DNA of 64,000 nt, from IMG/VR virus record IMGVR_UViG_3300045988_062794, one strand, 5' to 3'. The notes below the pieces were generated by a model. It was not told the origin of the DNA. It saw nothing but the letters and a program-made list of their open reading frames with translations, and searched no databases. This DNA is from a virus. Each line of letters opens with the position of its first letter. The stretch's first letter is position 1. Below, one piece after another: positions 7,865-22,533 of the stretch. A program made the translations under genes and the position numbers.

Positions 7865-8626
7865 TTAGAAATATCTAATAGATGTGTTTCTAGCATCTCT
7901 ACTCTGAGTTTTGCTATGCATATCTTTTTCACGTGCTTCACGCTCCATTTTCATGCGTCGCATTTCCACATCAGAGTAATCATCATATTCATATCCACGA
8001 GAACGTAGTTCATAAGGACGATCGTGTTTATGATAATATTTATCATAGTCCAAATATTCTGGTTCTCTATAACGATTCAAAGAATAATTACCTTTACGAT
8101 ATTCGTGTTCATAAGCTTTATAATCATTCTCTTCGTCATCACACATGATATAAACGTAATAATGCCACATCTTACCTTCTGAAATGTCTTTGTCACAAAT
8201 CCAAGCTTTGGTAAGTTCTGCAAAATGTTTTGTGTTATTGCTGCCAGTCATTGCTACAACAGCTTTATAAAAATCTGAATAGATCATATTCATAGCAACA
8301 TACCAATCCCATTTGTTATGTTTCTCTGATCTTAAGTTTATGCCCATTTGATTGGCAACGGACGTTGTCTCTTCAACCGTCCAATGAGGGCCTTTAGTGC
8401 CATCCTCATTTTCCATGCCTTCTACTGCGTATCTGGCATGTTCCTCATCAAAGTGAGGACCATTTATAGCTTCATATACATTAGCACAGAGTTCTGATTT
8501 AAGTATCTGGAAGCCCTTCTCTAACAAACTACCTTCGTGCTTTTCTAAAGCTTTACCAAGCTTATCAATAGCTTCAGTAGGAGAAGGATGGTGTTTGATT
8601 TGATCTAGAATTTTATTTAAATGCAT
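7865..8626 (-). CDS. hypothetical protein
   Basis: 253-aa ORF rich in His, Tyr and Trp. No family recognised. Confidence 0.5.
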   Translation of the reverse strand: MHLNKILDQIKHHPSPTEAIDKLGKALEKHEGSLLEKGFQILKSELCANVYEAINGPHFDEEHARYAVEGMENEDGTKGPHWTVEETTSVANQMGINLRSEKHNKWDWYVAMNMIYSDFYKAVVAMTGSNNTKHFAELTKAWICDKDISEGKMWHYYVYIMCDDEENDYKAYEHEYRKGNYSLNRYREPEYLDYDKYYHKHDRPYELRSRGYEYDDYSDVEMRRMKMEREAREKDMHSKTQSRDARNTSIRYF

Positions 8627-8673
8627 AGTTTCAATTTGTTTATTGATTAATACTAAATTGAAATGTTTTGCAA

Positions 8674-9279
8674 TTATTTTGAAATAGTTATAACCCTTGT
8701 TTCAATTGTCTTGATTAAAGGGTTTGTATTAATTATCTGATAGTCTCTTATTAAATCTTTTTTAAAATTTAGTGTGAACAAACGTCTAAAGAAACCTTTT
8801 TTACGCCATACTTTACGTTCACTTATATATAAATCTTGACGATTTCTAATGTCTAGTATATGTGTTAATATACTATCCTTTCTCTCTATTTTGATTGTAG
8901 TCAATTGATTTGGTTTTAGTTCTACTAAAAAGTCAGGATTAGGATCCTTTATTTTATGTAGTGTAGTATCTTTAATTACTGTTTCAGTAGAAGATACTGT
9001 ATTTAGCTCTTTGTCTTTTAATTTAAGCTCTTTAGCTTGTTTCCTTACTACTTGTACTAAACTGTCATTAGATTCTTTAAAATCGTCTATAGTAAGCATT
9101 AAGACTTTATTATTATCCTCAGCGTTGCTGAGTTTACCTTCATAATAATGTAAAGCACGTTTAGTTTCTACTAATCTATTATCTAAGTAATCTACTTTAT
9201 TACTAAGCCTATAATTATTTAAACCTAAGAAGACAGTAAGTGCAACAAAACCTATTTTAATATATCTCAACACATTCAC
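8674..9279 (-). CDS. N-terminally membrane-anchored coiled-coil protein (possible spanin-like lysis accessory)
   Basis: Hydrophobic N-terminus IKIGFVALTVFLGL followed by predicted coiled coil. Its start abuts the stop of the holin-like gene. Confidence 0.3.
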   Translation of the reverse strand: MNVLRYIKIGFVALTVFLGLNNYRLSNKVDYLDNRLVETKRALHYYEGKLSNAEDNNKVLMLTIDDFKESNDSLVQVVRKQAKELKLKDKELNTVSSTETVIKDTTLHKIKDPNPDFLVELKPNQLTTIKIERKDSILTHILDIRNRQDLYISERKVWRKKGFFRRLFTLNFKKDLIRDYQIINTNPLIKTIETRVITISK

Positions 9280-11275: not shown

Positions 11276-11920
11276 TTATACTAAAGTTACATAGTTATCT
11301 ACTAAACTTGACAAATCATGTGAAAGTGGCATTTCACTATTCCTAATACATAAATACACTTTACTGTTCTGTGTATAGTATTTATCCTTAAATAATTCCA
11401 TAGGTGGTATATAAGGTATCGGATCTTCTAATGTACCAGCATGATCTTTATCAACCACTTTATACAAAGACGCTGTATCTACTCCAGGAATCCAATTTTC
11501 TTGTAACGTATGATCCTGTATTACTTCATACAATATATCTGAATTATTTGTTACTACTCTAAATCTAAAACCCTTAGTAACAGAAGTACCATAAGAAGCA
11601 TCTCCTTTCCCCCATACAGGGTAAAGTGTTTTCATTTCTAAAGCTTTATCCGCAGTAAGTACTGAAGTGTTAATTATAGTTTTAATAAAGTTAATAGCTT
11701 GTGCTTGTTCATTGTCAAATTGTCCTGTATTTACTACTGTCTTTATTTCATCATAAGAAGGATAATGATTAAATACATGTTCATTGTATTTATAATGAAT
11801 AATATCATCTTCAGTTTCCTTATCCTTATCTACTTGAACGTCCCATCTTACTGCCCATTCATTTAAACCTAAGTATTCAACAGAAATAGGGATGCTATTA
11901 CTATGTGCGATTCTTGTCAT
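11276..11920 (-). CDS. CBM5/12-like repeat protein, paralogue of 2043..2696
   Basis: ILYEVIQDHTLQENWIPGVDTASLYKVVDKDHAGTLEDPIPYIPPMELFKDKYY... aligns residue by residue with the ORF at 2043..2696. Confidence 0.55.
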   Translation of the reverse strand: MTRIAHSNSIPISVEYLGLNEWAVRWDVQVDKDKETEDDIIHYKYNEHVFNHYPSYDEIKTVVNTGQFDNEQAQAINFIKTIINTSVLTADKALEMKTLYPVWGKGDASYGTSVTKGFRFRVVTNNSDILYEVIQDHTLQENWIPGVDTASLYKVVDKDHAGTLEDPIPYIPPMELFKDKYYTQNSKVYLCIRNSEMPLSHDLSSLVDNYVTLV

Positions 11921-12932
11921 AACCTAATAATAAAATTTTAAGTTCTTTTATATTATTTGTTCCTGTGAATTTCTTCCACAAATTAAAGCAATTACCATAT
12001 CTACACCATCCCCAGTAAGAAGATAGAGACCTGAATTTCTTATTAAAATTAATGTATTTAGTTTTCCTATAGAACTTCTTTTTCATATCCTTTCTTAATT
12101 TCATATGACTGTGTCTAAAAACATAGCCTAAGAAATCAATTCCTCTATCATCTACAGGATATATTTGCCAATCATGTTTCACTTCTAATTCAAGATGTGA
12201 GATCATGTATTCTTGTATCTTTTGTAATGCTTGATGTAATTCTTCTTTATTGGAAGAAAGTAGAACCATATCATCACAATATCTGAAGTAATGTTTAATC
12301 TTTAACTCCTGCTTTACCCATCTATCAAACCATGTTAAATAAAGATTAGCAGCAAATTGTGATATATAATTACCAATAGGTAATCCTTTATCTGTAGAAT
12401 AAATTATCTCAGATATTAAATTTAGAAACCTTTTATCTTTGAATATTCTATTAAATAGATCCATCATAATCTTTTGATCTACAGAAGGAAAGAACTTCTT
12501 TACATCTAGTTTCAAACAATATTTAGTATTTTTTGGATCTGTTTTTAATGCATGTTTCAATCTTTTTACTGCTAAGTGAATACCTCTACCTTTGATACAA
12601 CTATAAGTATCTGAAGTAAATCGCTTAACTAAATAAGGTTCTATGACATTCATTATAGCGTGATGAGCTATACGGTCTGGAAAGTAAGGTAATCTGTATA
12701 TTTCTCTTTCTTTATGACCTCTATCAGCAATAATAGTATAGATATCATATTCAGATGTTTTATAAGTACCTTCGATAAACATCCTTTGTAATTTTAATAA
12801 ATTCTCATGTGAATGTTTATCAAATTTAGCAATACCATAACGTTTAGATTTGTTAAGTCTTGCTTTCTTATCTGCTAGAACAAGATTGTTAAAATCGATA
12901 ATTCTATTGAAAATATTACCAATGCGTTTCAT
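11901..12932 (-). CDS. diversity-generating retroelement reverse transcriptase
   Basis: RT motifs include LPIGNYISQFAANLYL (the DGR-type IGxxxSQ motif) and the catalytic YCDD. A TR/VR pair lies immediately upstream. Confidence 0.9.
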   Translation of the reverse strand: MKRIGNIFNRIIDFNNLVLADKKARLNKSKRYGIAKFDKHSHENLLKLQRMFIEGTYKTSEYDIYTIIADRGHKEREIYRLPYFPDRIAHHAIMNVIEPYLVKRFTSDTYSCIKGRGIHLAVKRLKHALKTDPKNTKYCLKLDVKKFFPSVDQKIMMDLFNRIFKDKRFLNLISEIIYSTDKGLPIGNYISQFAANLYLTWFDRWVKQELKIKHYFRYCDDMVLLSSNKEELHQALQKIQEYMISHLELEVKHDWQIYPVDDRGIDFLGYVFRHSHMKLRKDMKKKFYRKTKYINFNKKFRSLSSYWGWCRYGNCFNLWKKFTGTNNIKELKILLLGYDKNRT

Positions 12933-13054
12933 TAGCTATTTTGGTGTTAGGACCCGTTCATCCAATACTACTAGGGTCCCTTCAAAGCACCTGTTATTTT
13001 TCACCAAGGGGTGAGGCTGATCTAATTTATACAACAAAAACTTCCAAAATTTCA
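12933..13054 (-). other. DGR spacer (Sp-like) region between TR and RT, with two hairpins
   Basis: Hairpins ggaccc/gggtcc (12950-12979) and tcacc-aagg-ggtga (13001-13014). There is no ORF in this interval. Confidence 0.5.
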
Positions 13055-13150
13055 CTGTGAACTGATATTCGAATTCGAATTCGATGAATCATTATTAGCA
13101 TTCGAATAGAAGACTCTGCAATTAGACTCATTGTCTGAATTACCTGACTT
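13055..13150 (-). repeat. DGR template repeat (TR), core alignment
   Basis: Aligns ungapped to 13301-13396 at a constant offset of 246. It is rich in sense-strand AAT codons (…AAT TCG AAT TCG AAT…). Confidence 0.85.
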
Positions 13151-13225
13151 ACTTTTTAATACATCTTCATCTAATCAAACCATTCTTTTAGATCCCGCCT
13201 TTGTTAATACTCTAGTTTTATAGGT

Positions 13226-16200
13226 TTATCCATTAAACCCAGGCTCTAACGCCAAAAATTCTTCTTTTGTTTTAACTACTATATTTCCATAAAAGCCCAA
13301 CCGCGAACCGAAAGACGAAGCCGAACCCGACGAACCAGCATCAGCATCCGAACCGAAGACCCCGCACCTAGACCCATGGGCCGAACCACCCGACCGCAGC
13401 AGAACCCTGTTACCCGTATTTTGATAGTAATAGTCTGCATAATATGTAGTGTCTGATCCACCGCTAACGTAAGTAGGCATAATATCCGCGTATTCTCCGT
13501 GAGCAATACCAGTAATCCAATTACTAGAAGAGGCAGCAGTATTGCTGCTAGAAGAGGCAACAATTTGTCTTACATTTGTATATCCTGCAGATGTTAAACC
13601 GGAAAGGTCAGTATTTACCTTAAGACCTCCATCGTACACTATCCATTGTCTATCAATAATATTAATTCCTTGTACGAATTCGTATTTACCATAATAACAA
13701 TCTTCAAGACCTAAAAAATTACTACTTTTACTAGACTTTCCATCCCTGTTACCTAATGACACTGTGGCACCTGTCGAACCATCCCAAGAACGTGTACCAC
13801 CGGAACAAGGTATGCTACTATTATCTGTACTTATATTCGTATTACCATATTTAGCACAGAATAAATTAGCAATAGTTTTATGGGCTCTATAATCAATCAA
13901 TCCCCAATTTAAACCATTGGTTTGTGCTTGATTGAAAAAGGTTTCTATAGTTTGATTTCCAGTACTAGTCGTATCGGGTCTGCTGGTTAATTTACCGTCA
14001 GTATTATATGCTTCAAATACACCAATCAAACATTCTCTTTCTTCTTTATAAGAATCGGTAAGCTTTCTATCAGATATATACAATTTGAATTTACCTATAC
14101 TCACTAGTTCTGTACGATAATAATATTTAGGGAAATGAACCATGTAATATACATAATGATAAGCACCAGTACGGTTAACAGTAGAACCATCTTCCCATTT
14201 ATTACTATCCGTAGAATTTAAATAGGCAATAGCAGCAGAACCATCATCCTGAGGTAACGCTAAACATCTTTTAAATTTACTAGTAAGGTTAGTAATGATA
14301 TCTAAATTACCACCTCTTTCTAGTGTAGTGGTACTTGTGGTTTCGTCAAATTGGACCCACATAGCGTGTGTTTCTTCATTGATCTGTTTCCAATCAAGAG
14401 TGACCTCTTTCACATCATCCAAACTACTTATTTGAATAGTTTGAATCTCTGGGGTGATGTATCCTGCTACGGATCTAGGTTCAATAGTCCAAGTTTCAGT
14501 AGTTGGTAATACAAATGTATTTTCATCAGTATCCCTTGTAACCAAAGTATAGGAACTTTCCTTTGGTACAGTATTAGAATACACATATACGTCTGCTAAA
14601 CCGCTAATATCTTTTGCTAATTTTATTTTCAATTTAGCTCCTCGATACATTAATGTTTTTTCTTCAGCTACTCCATTTGCTGTAGAAGTTATAGAATCTG
14701 GTGTGACCCATTTCCTAAAATTAGGAGAACTAAAAACAGATACTTCAGTACCCTCAATAGTATATTGAGCACCAGTTGGAATTTTTACAGTATAGGTACG
14801 ATTACCAGAAAGTGTTTTAGTTACATAACCTGATAACTTTACATCAACCTTATTAGAAAGTAATTCAGGATGATTGCTAGTAACATTAATTGTTACAATT
14901 GTGGTATTATAAGTTAATGTTATAATCCTAATATTACCTGCTTCTGCAATAAATGTTTGAGATTGTGGTTTAGCATAATCAGTTACATCACTACAAGTAA
15001 TAGTATATGTAGTATTTACTGGAATTGTGGCAGTAAGTTCAGTTCCTTCCCATGTAAGTACTTTAGAAGTTTCACCATAAGCTATAGTAATAGTAACACC
15101 ATTAATGTTAGAATCTGATAACTGATTACTTGCAACAGTTATTTTAACAGTTTCATCTTTAGGTGCTGCTTCTACTTCTACCCATGTTCCATTCTGTCTA
15201 GCATACTGTTTACCATCTTTAGGTGCTTCTGTAACTACTAATTCATCAAAAGTATTGTCTGATAAGTCAACCCATATTTCTTGTTCGCCATCAGGTTGTG
15301 TACCTTCGCTTATATATACTTCATCAGATATATCTGTTTTTAAAGCATACTCGTTGCCATGTTTACCATCAAGTAAATCAGCATCTAAACCACTACCAAC
15401 CCCATCTACTGTTTTTACTTTGGATAATACATCTGCTGCAGTATATGCAGAGGAATCTAATTTTGTATTAACCTGAGTAGTAGTAGCATAACCTTTTGCA
15501 TTTAATTCAGTTTCGGTTACATATTCTTCAGGTACTGAAGTAAGGTAATTGCCTTTTGGTTGATAAGTACTAGCTGCATCAGTCTTAGTTAAATACCCAC
15601 TAAGATCTACTGTTTCACTTAACTTATCCCAATCTGGAGTAGTTGAAGTAGCTACATAATTAGCCCCTGTATCTTCAAGATTATACACGTCACCGATACT
15701 TACATTTTCAGCAGGTAAGGCATTATAATTAGCTACAGAACCTTTTACTTTATATACTGAACCTATAGCAGTATTAATCTTCTGATCTATTTCTTCTGAT
15801 GTTGGTAATCCAGTAAGTTTATTAAATCCTTCAGCAGTGATTAAACCTGCAGCAGAAGTTGTAGCTGCTGGTATCTCTATTACTTTAGATTGAGTACTAC
15901 CATTAACACCTGTTTGTTCATTCTTAAATGAATACGTAATACGACCAAATTCAGCTGTGGAAACCATGTTATCGGCCATATTTACAACATAACCATTAAG
16001 TCTTGCTAATTTACTTTTTTCAGCCGAAGTAAAATCAGTAGAGCTTAATCCTTTTCCTTCTTCCTTATCTACTTTGGTATCTAACTTACTGTCTACATAA
16101 GTCTTATCAGCTTTACCAGAAATTTGTTCAGTAACATCTACTGCTGCGACAGTATCATCAACGTACTTCTTAGTAGCAGGATGATAATCTGTAGTAGGTG

Positions 16201-17695
16201 TATATGTACTAGTATTACTTTTGGATATGTATCTACTATCATGATTATGACTAGTAATATCCCCAGTAAGCACAGCTTCTACATTCTGTTTAGTTACAGA
16301 AGCATCACTACCTGGGTCTCCTTTCTCTCCTTTTTCACCAGGATCACCTTTTGGACCTTGTTCCCCAGGTGCACCATTAGCTCCTGGTTCACCTTTAGGA
16401 CCAGGTTCTCCCTGTTCTCCCTTAGGTCCTACAGGTCCCTGTGGTCCTGCTGGTCCTTGAATACTACCTACATTACTCCACTTAGGGTTTGATACAACAT
16501 TACCATTTTCACCGACATATACATATAGGTTACCAGAAATTAACCAAGCATCACCAGATACACCTTCTTGTGGTAATTGTGATTCAGAATCTAATTCCCC
16601 TTTAATATTTAATCCTGAACCAGTATCTCCCTTAGGTCCTTGTGGACCAGGTTCTCCTTGTGGCCCTTGAATTCCCTGTATACCTTGCTCTCCTTGTTCA
16701 CCTTTAGGTCCAACAGGCCCTTGTATACCTTGTTCACCCTTTTCACCTTGGACACCTTGTAAACCTCTTTCTCCTTGTAAACCCTGAGGTCCTCTTTCAC
16801 CAGTAGCCCCTTTTTCTCCAGTATCACCTTTATCTCCTTTAGGCCCAGTTTCACCTTTCTCACCTTTCAAAGAGATTAACCATTCAGCTTCTGTTCCTTC
16901 AAAACCATGCTGTACTGCTACTTGATATGCTGATAAACCTTGAATACCTTGTGCACCAGATAAGTCTGATATGAATTTCCATTCAGTATCTCCTTTTAGA
17001 TACAATCGAGAATCCTCTTCATTTTCAACATCACCTGTATCAATCATTACAAATTGTCCTGTCTTTACTTCAGGATTATTGTAATCATCTTCCATAGCTT
17101 GGATTGAAGGGTATGTCTTTACAATAGTAAATGCGTCACCAACTGCATTAATACCACTATCCTGATAAGTATCATTTACATAGTCATAGATATACCAATT
17201 ACCATCTACAATCTTTGGTGGATTTTGAAGTACTTCTTTTGAGTCTTTTACAGCTTGTTTAGCATCCTTAACCGCATTAGGTACTTCTGCAAGCATTCTA
17301 CCAAAGTCTTCTTCAGTGCCAGTATATCCTTGTTCTACAGCATATTCATATGCAGTCTTACCATATGCAGTAGCACCAGTGTCAGCATATTCGTTTAATG
17401 CAGAATCAAATACCCACCAATTACCATTTTCACCAATAATTGGACTTTTACCAGAAGCAGGTATACCTGTGTCACGATTATCTATCCACCAGTTACCATT
17501 AGAACCAATGAAAGGAGCAACAGCATCTTCACTAGTAGCATCTGTTAGTTTAACCCAAGACTTAATATCAGGATTATATACTTTAATTACTTTTCCTTTT
17601 GAATTTGCTCCCAAGTCTATCCAGTACCCAACTTCATTAGAATTGGGTACCATATAGCTTGCAAAGAATTCATAATATACATTATTCTTTATCAT
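13226..17695 (-). CDS. large collagen-like tail fibre, DGR target protein with C-terminal variable region
   Basis: 1489 aa. It has two G-X-Y collagen-like tracts, NGNWW repeats, a [17 protein letters not shown] fibre repeat, and a C-terminal lectin-like end (…[16 protein letters not shown]…[10 protein letters not shown]) that holds the VR. Confidence 0.85.
13301..13396 (-). repeat. DGR variable repeat (VR), core alignment
   Basis: A locally GC-rich patch. By hand count, 29 of 31 mismatches to the TR over 96 nt fall where the TR sense strand has A. Confidence 0.85.
16315..16455 (-). repeat. collagen-like G-X-Y triplet tract 2
   Basis: Encodes [49 protein letters not shown]. Confidence 0.8.
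16610..16865 (-). repeat. collagen-like G-X-Y triplet tract 1
   Basis: Encodes [37 protein letters not shown]...GPKGDTG. The alternative-frame ORF 16609..16863 is a by-product of this repeat. Confidence 0.8.
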
Positions 17696-18158
17696 TACTG
17701 TATTGTTTATAGATTAAAGGTTCAGTTAGATACATACTGGTGAAAGGATAATCTTCTTTCTTTTGTCTAAGATCATTAATAAGATCTCTAAGAACTTGTC
17801 TTCTTTCTGCAACTTCCGTATAATTATATTGTGAAGAAGGTTCTTGTCCTAGTACCATTGCTTCTGCAGCCTTAGTCATTATATAATCAGAAGAAGCTAA
17901 TTCTTCTTCTGCTTCTTTTAACGCTTCTTCTAGTTCCGCAGTAATGTAATATGTACACAATAATTCACCATTTTTGTAGAAATATCTCTTCATTAGATAT
18001 TTTATAGCCTCATCGTGCGGATCTTCAACATCTACTACATCATAATAATTAAGATCTAGATTATTTATTAAAACATCTATTTGATCAGTCATGTCTAAAC
18101 CATTAAATTCATCACTGTTTAGTACATAACCATCACTCTTTCTTACTATTATCGTCAT
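17682..18158 (-). CDS. hypothetical acidic protein (possible fibre assembly factor)
   Basis: 158-aa ORF between the two giant fibre genes, overlapping the downstream gene by 14 nt. Confidence 0.5.
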   Translation of the reverse strand: MTIIVRKSDGYVLNSDEFNGLDMTDQIDVLINNLDLNYYDVVDVEDPHDEAIKYLMKRYFYKNGELLCTYYITAELEEALKEAEEELASSDYIMTKAAEAMVLGQEPSSQYNYTEVAERRQVLRDLINDLRQKKEDYPFTSMYLTEPLIYKQYSNDKE

Positions 18159-18168
18159 AACTTAAATA

Positions 18169-21100
18169 TTAAATTGTTCTTGCATAATAAGTATCTGAAG
18201 CTGTAATTAAAAATCTTCTTGCCATAGCTTTATCCAATTTATAACTACTTATGTTTTTACCAGATTCATCAAACAGCGACATACCAGAACTAGGGAAAAT
18301 ATTATATGAAGTACCCCAGTTAGAAGCATATAATAACACTTCTATATTAAAATAATCGTTGCTCTTTAAACCTAGATGTTCAGCTAATAATGATCTGGAT
18401 GGTAAATACACCGTACTATAACTAGTACTATAAATTTCAAATCTCCAACCATATCCTCCCCCACCGGAGCTGTTAGCCGGCCAAACTAATTGAATACTAT
18501 TGCTAGAAGCGCTGGGATTTAATTGTGCTTTACATGTATCATATACGCCATGTCTACTCCAAATAAAACCACTTGTGACAGCTAAACCGACAGCCCAACC
18601 TTGTGAGTTATTAGCACTGATAGTAGATCCTAAAATATAATCACCATAAATGTTATTAGTATAACTTATAGACATTGGAAGATTTTTACCATACGTTGCT
18701 GGAGCAGAATTAATACCAAAACCGGCGTTAACTCCATCCCCACTACAATAATATCCGGAGTTACTTAATGACCATCCATCTCCTCTTAAACCATTACTAA
18801 TTTGAACTCCACCAATATCACCACTACTCGCTGATATTGTACCAGTAATATTAGCTTTAGTAGAAACCATACTTCCATCTTTTTTTATCCTAAAAGGTGC
18901 ACTACCAGGACTAGATGCTGCATTACTACCAGCTGCTAAATGCACATCGCTTAATGGTGAAGTTCTACCATCTAAACGCATAGTATTAGATTGAGCATAA
19001 ATATACTCATCTGCAAATTCCCAACCTGCAATAGTTGCGGTTTCTGCTAATAATAACCCTGTAGCTATTGATTCAAAAGATGCTCCAAATCTTGTCCAAT
19101 ACCTACCAGAAGTACCATCCACTGTAGTGTAACTATTTGATGGCTTATTACTGTTAGTAGCTACTGGTGCACTACCTCTATAATACTTATTCCACATGTA
19201 GTAATAGCTACCATCTTTAACAACATCTCTAACATTACCTGCATTGCCATCAGTCCATCCATAGGTTTTTCCAGATGCCCATTCACCTCTGTAATTTAAT
19301 CCTGGTCCATCCAAACCATCAGAACCCGGAGATCCAGGAGATCCTGGAGAACCAGCAGGGCCTCTATCTCCTTGTTCACCATCTTTTCCACTTATCTTTA
19401 CTGGAGTTGTCCATCTATAACCTGTAGTTTCATCTACTACTACAACTCCACCATTATTTGGATCTATGTTACCATGACTTTCCCATGTAGCGTAACTAGT
19501 AGAATATGTAGGATCAGGATACCAAGTATACCCGTTACTGGAAGTACCTGAAGAAGATGGTCTAGTAGATAATAACGGTCTGTTTGGGGTACTATTAGTC
19601 ATACAATATATAGATATTGGTTGATAACCTGCTGCACCACCTTTAGCTTTAGTAACAGTAAAATCACAAACATCTACTTCCTTAGCATCAACTAAGAAAT
19701 GAATTCTCCACACAGCAGTATCCGAAGTAAGAGATGTTACTGTTACTTTCTTATTGGTATTATCTACATTTACTGAACCATTACCACTCATTAATGTACC
19801 AGTAATAGAATAGTTATTATTCTCAATTTGTTCTATACCAAACCACAATCTAGCTTCAGTTACCGCTCTAGATAGTTCCGTAGGATCTACTTCCCCATTA
19901 AAGTTAGCTGCAACTGTATGAGCTTCATTGGTTAAAGCACCTCTATAACCGCCTTCACCATCTTTACCGTCATACAGTTTATTGATGGTCATCATATCCA
20001 TATATGTAGCACCTCCATTAGTAGATGTAACTTCACACTTAAATGTTACTTCATTGTTGCCTGAGAAATAATTACCCGTAGGACTTACTAATAGGTTATT
20101 ACCCGTTTCATTTACTAGTTCTTGCCAATCATTTGTACCGGGTAGAGCCCAGTACCAGTAAAACATGGGTGATTCTACATTAAACGCAGTAGCTAATAAA
20201 TTAATTGTAGCTGGAACTGGAGTAGTAGCACCAGAAGCATATTTAAATACCTGTTCTCCTGTAACCATCACATACGCTGCATCTATACCATCGAATCCAG
20301 ATTCTCCGTCATGAGTTTTATTTATATACCAATCCTTAGTAAGGATAGTAGCGTCTGTAACTTTGATAGTCAATCTTATAGTAGCACTTACTGTAGTAAT
20401 TGTGCTTAACGTAATACGGTTATTTTGTATTTCAACTGTAGCATTTCCATTAATCGTAGAAGCTTCTATAGATACAATTTCTATAGGGTCTATACCATGA
20501 TATGCATACACTTCTGTATAAATAGTATTTAAATTTACTAATGGAGTATTGCCAGATGAATCATAAGGTATATTTACAGTACTATTTGTTAAATCTACAT
20601 AATATGCATCTAATCCTTCAGCACCATTTGCTAATTTAGCAATTTGTATGTCATCATAATATTGACTGCCATCTGAATCAGTAACTACACAACGTACATT
20701 AGCTGTCCTTGTAGTAAATATTGTATGTGGTATTTCAGTACTTACATTATTGCCAATTATTTCTATCGGCTCGGTTAACAATCTCCATTCATATGTAGGA
20801 TTAGTCATACCATAAGTATTACAATACAATACTACAGATGATGGAGTTGGTGTACCAGAGTAATCAGGAGTATCGTATAAGAACAGTCTTGTACCAGTGA
20901 TTTCAACCCATTTAGCTACATCATCACCAGGTTTACCTGAATCACCTTTTGATACTTGTAATTGCCACTCATCATTATCAGGACCTGGTACACTAGTAAC
21001 TCCATCTTTCATGGCAATCCACAAACTACCTTGATATGTAACTTGATCGTAATAATTATAAGTAGTATCTGGATTCCATTCTCCACGATAAATAGGAACT

Positions 21101-22533
21101 CTAACTACATCACCTGTCTCTGTGGTTTGCATTAAAGTACCAACAAATTTACTTTCCTTTCCGATCACAGTACGATCTTTACCAGCTAGAGTAAAATCAT
21201 CAATGTTATCATAGAAAGTAATTCTAGGAGCTCCTTCTCCTTTAGCAGAAATGAATATAGCATTACGTCTATCATTCATAGATGAATTCAATTCAGGATC
21301 TGCTTCTACCCTATGACCTAACAATAAGACCTTGTCTCCTACTTCAGGATTAGCGCTACCAGGTTCACATACGCTTTTAGAAAGAACAATATAGTTATTA
21401 CCTACTTCAGATACCATTCTCCAGTATCTCTTTACATTCTTTCCATCAAATTTCTGACAGATAGCCTGGTCTCTTACTCTAAATTGATTGTATTTAGTAC
21501 CGTCTTCATCATCAAAATAGCAAGTCCATCCATCACTACCATCTACTACTTCAACGATTTCCATATCAGCCATTGTAACTAATATATCTCCGCCAACAGC
21601 TTTTATTTCATTTACAATTAACTCATTTACTGTAAGATTGCCACGAACAAATAAATCATCTACTTCTAAATGCCATTTGGTATTTACGGGCCACAAACTA
21701 GCTCCTTCACCATCCCAACCAGATCTAAAGGTTTTGCCACCTTGTATACCTGCCAAAAATGTAGTATAACCTGTTGCCGTATCACCGTCTTTGCGTAGAT
21801 AATCTTCTTTTACTTTACCTGAAGTATATATTGTGCCATCGCTAGGTGCAGTAGTTTGTCCAGTCTTAATTAAAGGAAGAGACCCGGAACTGCTTGAAGT
21901 AATATTATCTATCTGACATTCCAATTTACCTAAGGCTTGATTTAAAGTATCAGTAGTAGTTAAAGGATCAGCATTTTCTCCTTTGTAATACCCGGATAAT
22001 GGAAATATAGTACTAGTAGGTTGTGTATGAAAACCAGGCGCTTCACCACTACCACCACCATTTGCAATTAAATCTGCTAATGCTGTAATGATGTTTTCAT
22101 CTTCAATCAACCTATTTAATAGGTTTTGTAATTGTTCTTTAGTAGACTTATCATCAATAGTATCTATCCAACCCTGTACTGTATCATTAACTTCAGTTAA
22201 ATCTTTATCGTGTTTATCTTCAAGAGTAATGATCTTATTGTTTAGTACATCATAGTAACTATTAATATTACTACTTAGATTATTAGTAACATTAGTATCT
22301 CCTTCCACTATCTTGTTGGATAGATCTACATAATTATTATCTACTTTGGTATTAAGATTAGCTACATCTTCTTCAATTCCATCTACTCTCTCATTAGTAG
22401 CAAATGTACCAGATAAACTAGTTTCAAAATCATCTTTATGAATTATCTTATTAGTTTTATCTTGTACAAGAGTTAGAATATCATTATCTTCAAAAGATGT
22501 AGTAACCTCAAATTGTGATATCTTTTTATTCAT
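18169..22533 (-). CDS. giant tail fibre / tail-spike-like structural protein
   Basis: 1454 aa. The N-terminal KISQFEVTTSFEDNDILTLVQDKTNK is typical of fibre N-termini. There is a short collagen-like tract GKDGEQGDRGPAGSPGSPGSPGSDGLDGPG (~19305-19392). Confidence 0.7.
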   Translation of the reverse strand: MNKKISQFEVTTSFEDNDILTLVQDKTNKIIHKDDFETSLSGTFATNERVDGIEEDVANLNTKVDNNYVDLSNKIVEGDTNVTNNLSSNINSYYDVLNNKIITLEDKHDKDLTEVNDTVQGWIDTIDDKSTKEQLQNLLNRLIEDENIITALADLIANGGGSGEAPGFHTQPTSTIFPLSGYYKGENADPLTTTDTLNQALGKLECQIDNITSSSSGSLPLIKTGQTTAPSDGTIYTSGKVKEDYLRKDGDTATGYTTFLAGIQGGKTFRSGWDGEGASLWPVNTKWHLEVDDLFVRGNLTVNELIVNEIKAVGGDILVTMADMEIVEVVDGSDGWTCYFDDEDGTKYNQFRVRDQAICQKFDGKNVKRYWRMVSEVGNNYIVLSKSVCEPGSANPEVGDKVLLLGHRVEADPELNSSMNDRRNAIFISAKGEGAPRITFYDNIDDFTLAGKDRTVIGKESKFVGTLMQTTETGDVVRVPIYRGEWNPDTTYNYYDQVTYQGSLWIAMKDGVTSVPGPDNDEWQLQVSKGDSGKPGDDVAKWVEITGTRLFLYDTPDYSGTPTPSSVVLYCNTYGMTNPTYEWRLLTEPIEIIGNNVSTEIPHTIFTTRTANVRCVVTDSDGSQYYDDIQIAKLANGAEGLDAYYVDLTNSTVNIPYDSSGNTPLVNLNTIYTEVYAYHGIDPIEIVSIEASTINGNATVEIQNNRITLSTITTVSATIRLTIKVTDATILTKDWYINKTHDGESGFDGIDAAYVMVTGEQVFKYASGATTPVPATINLLATAFNVESPMFYWYWALPGTNDWQELVNETGNNLLVSPTGNYFSGNNEVTFKCEVTSTNGGATYMDMMTINKLYDGKDGEGGYRGALTNEAHTVAANFNGEVDPTELSRAVTEARLWFGIEQIENNNYSITGTLMSGNGSVNVDNTNKKVTVTSLTSDTAVWRIHFLVDAKEVDVCDFTVTKAKGGAAGYQPISIYCMTNSTPNRPLLSTRPSSSGTSSNGYTWYPDPTYSTSYATWESHGNIDPNNGGVVVVDETTGYRWTTPVKISGKDGEQGDRGPAGSPGSPGSPGSDGLDGPGLNYRGEWASGKTYGWTDGNAGNVRDVVKDGSYYYMWNKYYRGSAPVATNSNKPSNSYTTVDGTSGRYWTRFGASFESIATGLLLAETATIAGWEFADEYIYAQSNTMRLDGRTSPLSDVHLAAGSNAASSPGSAPFRIKKDGSMVSTKANITGTISASSGDIGGVQISNGLRGDGWSLSNSGYYCSGDGVNAGFGINSAPATYGKNLPMSISYTNNIYGDYILGSTISANNSQGWAVGLAVTSGFIWSRHGVYDTCKAQLNPSASSNSIQLVWPANSSGGGGYGWRFEIYSTSYSTVYLPSRSLLAEHLGLKSNDYFNIEVLLYASNWGTSYNIFPSSGMSLFDESGKNISSYKLDKAMARRFLITASDTYYARTI

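Follow-up and report, generated by a model that had tools for sequence, protein, structure and literature searches.

Positions 11276 to 17695 of the IMG/VR virus record IMGVR_UViG_3300045988_062794 (64,000 nucleotides (nt) of viral DNA, all of which we analysed and call the window) bring together, on one strand, a reverse transcriptase (RT) gene, a pair of similar 96-nt repeats and the gene of a giant tail fibre. The question raised by this locus is whether these parts act together as a diversity-generating retroelement (DGR; that is, a cassette in which a template repeat (TR) would be copied, with errors at its adenines, into a variable repeat (VR) of a target gene) and whether cassettes of this type are still at work in nature. 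A reading of the sequence alone (hereafter, the sequence-only reading) had proposed a complete DGR that diversifies a 1489-amino-acid (aa) collagen-like tail fibre. Taking the repeats, the RT, the fold of the fibre tip and the variation among related loci together, we consider it very likely that the cassette is indeed a DGR of the Avd-less kind, with the order 'target-VR-TR-RT', in a crAss-like phage of the Suoliviridae/Boorivirinae. In the human gut, crAss-like phages rank among the most abundant viruses, and their host ranges are poorly understood. The core parts of the cassette are as follows.

11901–12932, minus strand: DGR RT, 343 aa (Pfam RVT_1, E 8e-20; PHROG 1423 'Reverse transcriptase', E 4e-110)
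13055–13150, minus strand: TR, non-coding, with 33 adenines (from the TR/VR alignment)
13301–13396, minus strand: VR, fibre residues 1434–1465 (from the TR/VR alignment)
13226–17695, minus strand: DGR target gene, encoding the 1489-aa tail fibre as a continuous open reading frame (ORF; Pfam Collagen, E 1.5e-20; PHROGs tail and tail-fibre families)

Repeats, reverse transcriptase and fibre tip

The TR and the VR align without gaps over 96 nt at a constant offset of 246 and differ at 31 positions, which in the sense strand (TR to VR) comprise 21 A>G, 6 A>C, 2 A>T and 2 T>G mismatches. Substitutions fall on 29 of the 33 TR adenines and on only 2 of the 63 other TR bases (Fisher exact p = 5.5e-18); the latter are 2 of the 30 thymines, and no G or C is changed. 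Both the alignment and the count of 29 adenine sites among 31 mismatches, made by hand in the sequence-only reading, were thereby reproduced. Beyond the 96-nt block, the TR and VR regions are unrelated at constant offset. The TR lies in the 293 nt of non-coding sequence that separate the stop codon of the fibre from the start of the RT, and its in-frame translation would read KSGNSDNESNCRVFYSNANNDSSNSNSNISSQ; AAT codons are abundant in it, and its adenines occupy codon positions 1, 2 and 3 in 13, 15 and 5 cases, respectively. The VR encodes fibre residues 1434–1465, is followed by LGFYG... and leaves 24 residues to the end of the protein (1489). It has a G+C content of 65% in a genome of 34% G+C, and the TR is A+T rich. 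A scan of the window in which TR adenines were treated as wildcards, run with the full TR and with both of its halves, matched the TR itself and this VR only, with no second VR or further target.

The ungapped similarity ends at ...TTCRCRG(T), next to which lie two candidates for boundary elements like those of known DGRs (that is, the initiation of mutagenic homing (IMH) site beside the VR and its counterpart, IMH*, beside the TR).

13285–13300, minus strand: VR 3' flank TTGGGCTTTTATGGAA, a candidate IMH-like boundary of putative function, which resembles the TR 3' flank with indels only
13042–13055, minus strand: TR 3' flank GTGAAATTTTGGAA, a candidate IMH*-like segment of putative function, conserved in the crAss-like phages cr10_1 and cr50_1

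Each of the two flanks is conserved in both cr10_1 and cr50_1, and aligning them with one another requires indels.

By homology, the RT falls in the DGR clade, and it is full length with its catalytic motifs intact. The sequence IGNYISQ (DGR signature [I/L/V]GxxxSQ) begins at residue 186 (12357–12377) and the catalytic YCDD (YxDD) at residue 218 (12270–12281), as the sequence-only reading had noticed. Among solved structures, the RT is closest to 8ub7 (E 1.4e-40, over the full length), which we take to be the Bordetella phage DGR RT; group II intron RTs match at E 2e-13, and group II intron and retron RTs generally at E 1e-13 or worse.

The VR lies within a module for which a structural model is available.

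13229–14455, minus strand: C-terminal receptor-binding module, residues 1081–1489, with a predicted DGR-type C-type-lectin fold (AlphaFold2 and Foldseek)

The last 409 residues of the fibre were modelled with AlphaFold2 from an alignment of 71 sequences, with a predicted local distance difference test score (pLDDT) of 90.2 and a predicted template modelling score (pTM) of 0.90. When the model was compared with the PDB using Foldseek, the TaqVP protein (5vf4) came first (E 7e-9, probability 1.0), followed by Mtd (1yu0–1yu4) and TvpA (2y3c), so that the top solved matches are DGR variable proteins throughout; the fibre sequence itself matched none of the Pfam CLec families. The model thus supports a C-type-lectin fold of the DGR variable protein kind for the fibre tip, in line with the lectin-like C-terminal tip at which the sequence-only reading had placed the VR.

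Variation among related loci

If the cassette diversifies its target, related loci should differ at VR positions templated by adenine and share their TR. An exact 30-mer from the TR retrieved five IMG/VR contigs that are 92–97% identical to the cassette; their TRs are identical to that of the window or 1 nt off, and all of their VRs differ. Across the window and four of these contigs, 26 VR positions are polymorphic, of which 23 are adenine-templated. When metagenome contigs were scanned for a 20-nt TR pattern, 119 further loci emerged, all from gut or similar assemblies, which were pooled with the window and the loci fetched before to count VR substitutions. Two TR types account for the following counts: that of the window and a sister type found in cr10_1 and cr50_1.

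Window-type TR: 16 loci including the window; 15 distinct VRs; 389 of 495 adenine sites and 4 of 945 other sites substituted; 0 stop codons
Sister-type TR (cr10_1/cr50_1): 86 loci; 84 distinct VRs; 1800 of 2490 adenine sites and 48 of 5063 other sites substituted; 0 stop codons

Across both types, substitution therefore reaches 72–79% of adenine sites and 0.4–0.9% of other sites. The VR of the window is unique in the set, in frame and without stops. The mean pairwise difference among 13 window-type loci, calculated segment by segment, shows where this variation resides.

TR: 0.0016
TR-to-RT spacer: 0.008
VR-to-TR spacer: 0.018
RT: 0.027
Fibre upstream of the VR: 0.09
VR: 0.158

A frozen template and RNA scaffold next to a churning target is what a working DGR under selection should produce, and the variation among related contigs shows indirectly that this type of cassette is still diversifying in nature. 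The sequence-only reading had anticipated VR hypervariability restricted to adenine-templated positions, and the public contigs, taken as a proxy, bear it out: the TR is near-invariant and nearly every locus has its own VR. All VRs have G at the last three adenine differences of the TR 3' end, which could therefore be part of a fixed IMH/IMH*-like difference and not of the mutagenised zone.

The lineage of Suoliviridae to which the window belongs thus continuously rewrites the tip of its long fibre, with nearly every metagenome contig examined carrying its own version, which is relevant to host tracking and phage–host arms races and makes fibre sequences unsuitable for typing these phages. The set also constitutes a resource in which two fixed templates have given ~100 independent natural VR outcomes.

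Some loci depart from the common pattern in other ways. In one (L096), the VR is nearly identical to the TR across its 5' two-thirds, and a few 'TR' copies among the scanned loci (L010–L128) carry VR-like GCGGGG patches; these cases are either TR/VR chimeras of short-read assembly or real non-mutagenic conversion. The rare VR substitutions at non-adenine sites are mostly T>G, which is also the commonest non-adenine class in sister-type VRs, and both T>G changes in the window adjoin a substituted adenine.

The outcomes at adenines depend on the following base. TR adenines with a 3' G appear as G in 96–97% of the ~100 VRs in both TR types, and those with a 3' C appear as C in only ~7–8% of VRs. 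At fourfold-silent TCA|G sites, TCG is found in 83/83 and 82/83 sister-type VRs and in 14/15 and 13/15 window-type VRs; at silent CA|T sites of the sister type, G is found in 58–75% of VRs and A is kept in only 6–8%. Selection at the protein level cannot explain these silent sites. Eight further crAss-like TR/VR pairs behave similarly, with adenine read as G in 60 of 68 cases before G, 25 of 119 before A and 17 of 85 before T. The sister-type TR of cr50_1 and cr10_1 (for example, L001, 7755–7861) contains an in-frame TAG codon, which reads TGG in 76, TCG in 4, TTG in 4 and TAG in none of 84 VRs; given that it is never kept, this template-encoded stop must mutate at each homing event.

Either the RT nearly always adds C opposite an adenine directly after placing C opposite the neighbouring G, or selection acts on the nucleotide sequence. 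We tentatively suggest, as a possibility that we rate at somewhat below even, that the RT of this crAss-like DGR lineage, working without Avd and with RNA laid out as described below, converts adenine before G to G near-deterministically and truly randomises the other adenines (mostly in AAT codons). If so, the TR would hold two layers of information (that is, 'hard-coded' A-to-G recoding and genuinely variable positions), the former including Arg/Gly scaffold codons and the conversion of the in-frame TAG of the sister type to TGG. An effect of the 3' base has been documented for the Bordetella RT in Escherichia coli, in the form of raised G misincorporation at NAC (PMC12875486); this effect is weaker and has another preference, and would appear as A to C in the sense strand. 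The neighbour-dependent A-to-G rule looks new, and a substitution rule of this strength could inform engineered DGR mutagenesis.

RNA around the template and rival readings

How the TR might be copied by the RT is suggested by the RNA on either side of it, for which the computed folds give four features.

13188–13199, minus strand: upstream duplex strand GGCGGGAUCUAA, predicted to pair with 13015–13025 in the minimum-free-energy and centroid folds
13015–13025, minus strand: downstream duplex strand UUAGAUCAGCC, predicted to pair with 13188–13199
12994–13014, minus strand: 5-bp hairpin with tetraloop, UCACC-CCUU-GGUGA (13001–13014), followed by an adenosine run (compensatory changes)
12936–13013, minus strand: structured TR-to-RT spacer RNA with a second stem at 12950–12980 (similarity to Rfam RT-18/RT-17)

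The duplex that brackets the TR has an energy of -12.2 kcal/mol, matched by 1 of 500 shuffles, and is followed directly by the 5-bp hairpin, the adenosine run and the second stem just upstream of the RT gene. Ten crAss-like DGRs from six subfamilies have a duplex at this place, each with a differing sequence (nine found with duplexfold and that of cr55_1 by eye), for example, AUGUCAA/UUGACAU in cr55_1, UUCUCC/GGAGAA in cr52_1 and 14 bp in crAssphage LMMB. Its outer pairs covary (GGU/ACC, GGC/GCC and AGU/ACU), and the cognate duplexes reach about -12 kcal/mol, with shuffle controls clearly significant in six loci. Across nine crAss-like DGRs, the hairpin shows compensatory double changes at 3 of its 5 pairs and 0 broken pairs. 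A MAFFT/RNAalifold consensus of the spacer of nine DGRs recovered the hairpin only, with the second stem lost to misalignment.

RT-17 and RT-18 are RNA motifs known from the sequence upstream of RT genes. The corresponding element scores above the RT-17 threshold in cr6_1 (44.5 versus 40.4 bits) and almost reaches it in cr7_1 (38.6), and the spacer of the window looks like a divergent relative of RT-17/RT-18 rather than a scored member. In the RNA of the Bordetella phage DGR, a 'cPRT Stop' has been described that consists of a duplex between the TR-upstream region and the spacer, a short stem-loop and adenosines, and that is needed for cis-primed reverse transcription and sets the end of cDNA synthesis (bioRxiv 10.1101/2023.10.23.563531). 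By analogy, the layout of the RNA that flanks the TR of the window appears to match this element, in a lineage without Avd, which would make this RT, Avd-less yet retaining the RNA layout of the Bordetella system, a further resource. A terminator scan found no intrinsic terminator from the fibre gene to the RT; co-transcription of the fibre gene with the TR and the RT is therefore possible. A sigma-70 scan, which does not extend to Bacteroidota or phage promoters, found no promoter near the TR.

On this basis, the following sequence of events can be envisioned. The non-coding TR and its flanks would be transcribed, and the flanks are computed to fold into the duplex that brackets the TR, the short hairpin, the adenosine run and the second stem upstream of the RT gene. 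As in the Bordetella phage system, the RT may then bind this RNA, prime on it and copy the TR to cDNA, misincorporating opposite adenines, and synthesis would presumably stop at the duplex. The cDNA would take the place of the 96-nt VR, at the fibre gene's 3' end, and so recode ~20 of 32 residues on what is probably the ligand-binding face of a tip with a C-type-lectin fold, borne by a long, collagen-containing and probably trimeric fibre. The outcome would be a very large repertoire of receptor-binding tips in the population, with the TR keeping the master copy intact.

Several observations pull the other way and temper this account. The sequence-only reading had called the DGR complete, and target, VR, TR and RT are all present; the part that does not appear is the Avd gene, for which neither the cassette proteins nor the 39 small ORFs of the 64-kb window gave a Pfam match. 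The Avd gene occurs in most DGRs, though not universally, and the protein is required in the Bordetella system, which counts against a cassette in which none is detectable; the crAss-like DGR lineage, however, is typically without avd (PMC7290462). Beside the VR, a comparison of the flanks found nothing convincing in the way of a classic G+C-rich IMH with an adjacent hairpin, and the two T>G mismatches in the VR are not adenine-templated. As for the RNA, the spacer scores below the Rfam gathering thresholds for both RT-18 (34.5 bits versus 41.3, E 2e-4) and RT-17 (27.4 versus 40.4); the shuffle test of the duplex is weak in cr52_1, cr56_1 and cr7_1, in which 33–57 of 500 shuffles do equally well; and folding the TR region as a whole gives no more stability than shuffled sequences reach (z = -0.02), an uninformative value, given that the A+T-rich TR governs the fold. 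What the related contigs show applies to the lineage and does not prove activity of the copy in the window. Finally, one relative (L008, IMGVR_UViG_3300045988_105517, ~8466–8914) resembles a copy of this cassette that decayed recently: a ~510-nt deletion has removed the RT start and the first ~164 codons (equivalent to window positions 12439–12947) and its VR has a 3-nt deletion, from which it follows that cassettes of this type decay.

The last of these points leads to the rival that survives best, namely that the cassette is a relic, its TR/VR pattern recording past mutagenic homing and its RT or RNA now dead, with the fibre tip fixed. Decay stages of DGR cassettes and fragments in crAss-like phages are reported in passages of PMC7290462 and PMC12386605, the deletions in L008 provide an instance among the close relatives, and current activity is beyond proof from any single assembled sequence. 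Yet the RT of the window is not truncated and its catalytic motifs are intact, no other segments of the locus are as conserved among relatives as the TR and the spacer RNA, 15 of the 16 window-type loci have their own VR, and that of the window is unique, in frame and free of stops; a relic is thus improbable, and a DGR of a type still at work in nature is the reading that we prefer. An ordinary 96-nt duplication that diverged by normal mutation or compositional drift beside an unrelated RT has next to no probability, being already refuted by the strand-specific, adenine-only pattern: a G+C-rich VR and an A+T-rich TR would alone yield many mismatches of A with G or C, but drift from A+T to G+C should affect T like A, whereas 29 of 33 adenines and 2 of 30 thymines are changed and no G or C; variation of the VR in relatives coincides exactly with the adenine-templated positions, against a fixed TR; and at least ten other crAss-like phage loci show the same combination of TR, VR and RT.

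Known systems, fibre scaffold and neighbouring genes

The closest known cassettes are those of cr10_1 (Canhaevirus) and cr50_1 (Cohcovirus), which share with the window the order of large fibre, VR, ~150 nt, TR, ~120-nt spacer, RT and small overlapping ORF. Their RTs are 63–65% and their fibre C-terminal modules 47–49% identical to those of the window, the 5' half of the TR and the spacer RNA are almost identical, and the TR/VR pairs are adenine-specific in both. The differences are that the middle of the window TR diverges and its 3' end is 6 nt longer, that the N-terminal ~790 residues of the window fibre resemble cr55_1 rather than cr10_1/cr50_1, and that the post-RT ORF is fused to a carbohydrate-binding-like domain in the window but not in cr10_1/cr50_1. 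The RefSeq records of these two phages annotate the RT of the cassette and leave the TR and VR unmarked.

The first crAss-like DGR was described in 2020 in crAssphage LMMB (Intestiviridae, Carjivirus; PMC7290462). It shares the target-VR-TR-RT layout without avd and a tail fibre protein as target (PMC7290462), as well as the duplex that brackets the TR, the hairpin (UUACC-UCUU-GGUAA) and the adenosine run, but belongs to a different family, has an RT that is 44% identical and targets a 486-aa tail-collar fibre rather than a 1489-aa collagen-containing one. DGRs are also reported in epsilon and zeta crAss-like phages in passages of PMC11054128 and PMC12386605, the latter of which notes a resemblance of its RTs to those of Suoliviridae phages; DGRs and reverse transcriptase go unmentioned in Yutin et al. 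2021 (PMC7886860). As crAss-like DGRs have been known since 2020 and homologous cassettes are published in cr10_1 and cr50_1, the DGR of the window adds no new principle.

With the prototype, the DGR of Bordetella phage BPP-1 (Mtd, bRT and Avd), the window shares a TR from which adenine-specific mutagenic homing would lead into the 3' end of a gene for a receptor-binding protein, full-length RT homology (E 1.4e-40), a predicted C-type-lectin-fold tip and an RNA layout that resembles the cPRT Stop (that is, upstream:downstream duplex, short stem-loop and adenosines). It differs in having neither Avd nor a G+C-rich IMH with hairpin, in using AAT rather than AAC codons in the TR and in its substitution spectrum (A before G becomes G in ~96% of cases and A before C becomes C in ~7–8%). 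TaqVP of Thermus aquaticus (PDB 5vf4), the best structural match of the tip, aligns over ~390–400 columns but differs in sequence (12% identity, TM-scores 0.42–0.46) and in being a stand-alone bacterial protein rather than the tip of a phage fibre.

The affiliation of the window is assigned from nucleotide similarity: positions 22000–46000, which span the portal, terminase and major capsid genes, are 77–83% identical to cr10_1, cr1_1, cr55_1 and cr50_1, all four of them Suoliviridae/Boorivirinae, placing the source among the crAss-like phages (Crassvirales), in the Suoliviridae/Boorivirinae. Around the fibre gene, the relationships change.

15333–18500, minus strand: stretch encoding the N-terminal part of the fibre and upstream genes, 94.6% identical to phage cr55_1

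The similarity to cr55_1, which covers fibre residues 1 to ~787 and the upstream genes, ends at 15333, a position in the fibre gene that marks a module boundary. The C-terminal half of the fibre, the TR, the spacer and the RT are instead related to cr10_1/cr50_1, and cr55_1 itself has a homologous fibre (1096 aa) away from its RT and a TR/VR pair at a separate 572-aa tail protein. This combination of a cr55_1-like N-terminal part with a cr10_1/cr50_1-like tip, TR and RT implies that the DGR-bearing tip module moves between fibre scaffolds, such that the fibre is a mosaic whose tip seems to be exchanged as a module.

The remainder of the fibre comprises the following elements.

17192–17500, minus strand: N-terminal region with three [N/D]GNW[W/Y] motifs from residues 66, 90 and 164 (motif search; direct repeat D9)
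16613–16864, minus strand: collagen-like tract 1, 28 uninterrupted G-X-Y triplets, residues 278–361 (Pfam, motif search, repeat family D1)
16304–16456, minus strand: collagen-like tract 2, 17 uninterrupted G-X-Y triplets, residues 414–464 (Pfam, motif search)
15179–15229, minus strand: foldon-like 17-residue motif (weak Pfam Fibritin_C match, E 0.0037, below cut-off, and motif match)

Pfam Collagen matches three stretches with 73.1 bits (cut-off 27.2), and the foldon-like motif is a probable trimerisation element. The collagen-like character and the NGNWW repeat described in the sequence-only reading are accordingly both present in the 13226–17695 ORF, the former as the tracts of 28 and 17 triplets and the latter as the three N-terminal motifs. 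A collagen-containing scaffold of 1489 aa is an uncommon carrier for a DGR and involves no new principle. Most related loci have a long ORF of 1300–1443 codons ahead of the VR. Five database proteins (P0001–P0005) with 91–94% identity are only 474–494 aa long and begin at internal Met 996 or 1016 of the window fibre; because most related contigs keep the long fibre ORF, these short versions may be artefacts of gene calling or frameshifts.

On the other side of the RT, a further ORF may or may not belong to the cassette.

11276–11920, minus strand: post-RT ORF, 214 aa, overlapping the RT stop codon; its first ~85 residues represent a small family found directly after this type of RT

Members of this family are proteins of ~115 aa with the motif EYLGxNEWAVRWD, which always start inside the 3' end of this RT type (L001, 9013–9360; L002, 6912–7256; L135, 5001–5357; L137, 5001–5381). 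In the window, the ~85 N-terminal residues of the family are fused to a carbohydrate-binding-like domain that also occurs in cr1_1. We considered this protein as a substitute for Avd and disfavour it: the predicted fold has four strands and three helices and is not a helical bundle, and no significant PDB match was found for it. We judge a structural role more likely than that of an Avd substitute; the protein may be an accessory either of the DGR or of the fibre, and its membership of the cassette is uncertain.

Upstream of the fibre gene, a second giant tail protein of 1454 aa (18169–22533, minus strand) is encoded directly upstream of the ORF at 17682–18158 (the operon partner of the fibre). 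It contains a short collagen-like GPAGSPGSPGSPGSDGLDGPG stretch and has no match to the TR, and is hence not a DGR target. Among the small ORFs of the window, Pfam matches to GIY-YIG and NUMOD1 suggest a homing endonuclease, matches to sigma-70 regions 2 and 4 suggest a sigma factor, and there is a dUTPase match as well.

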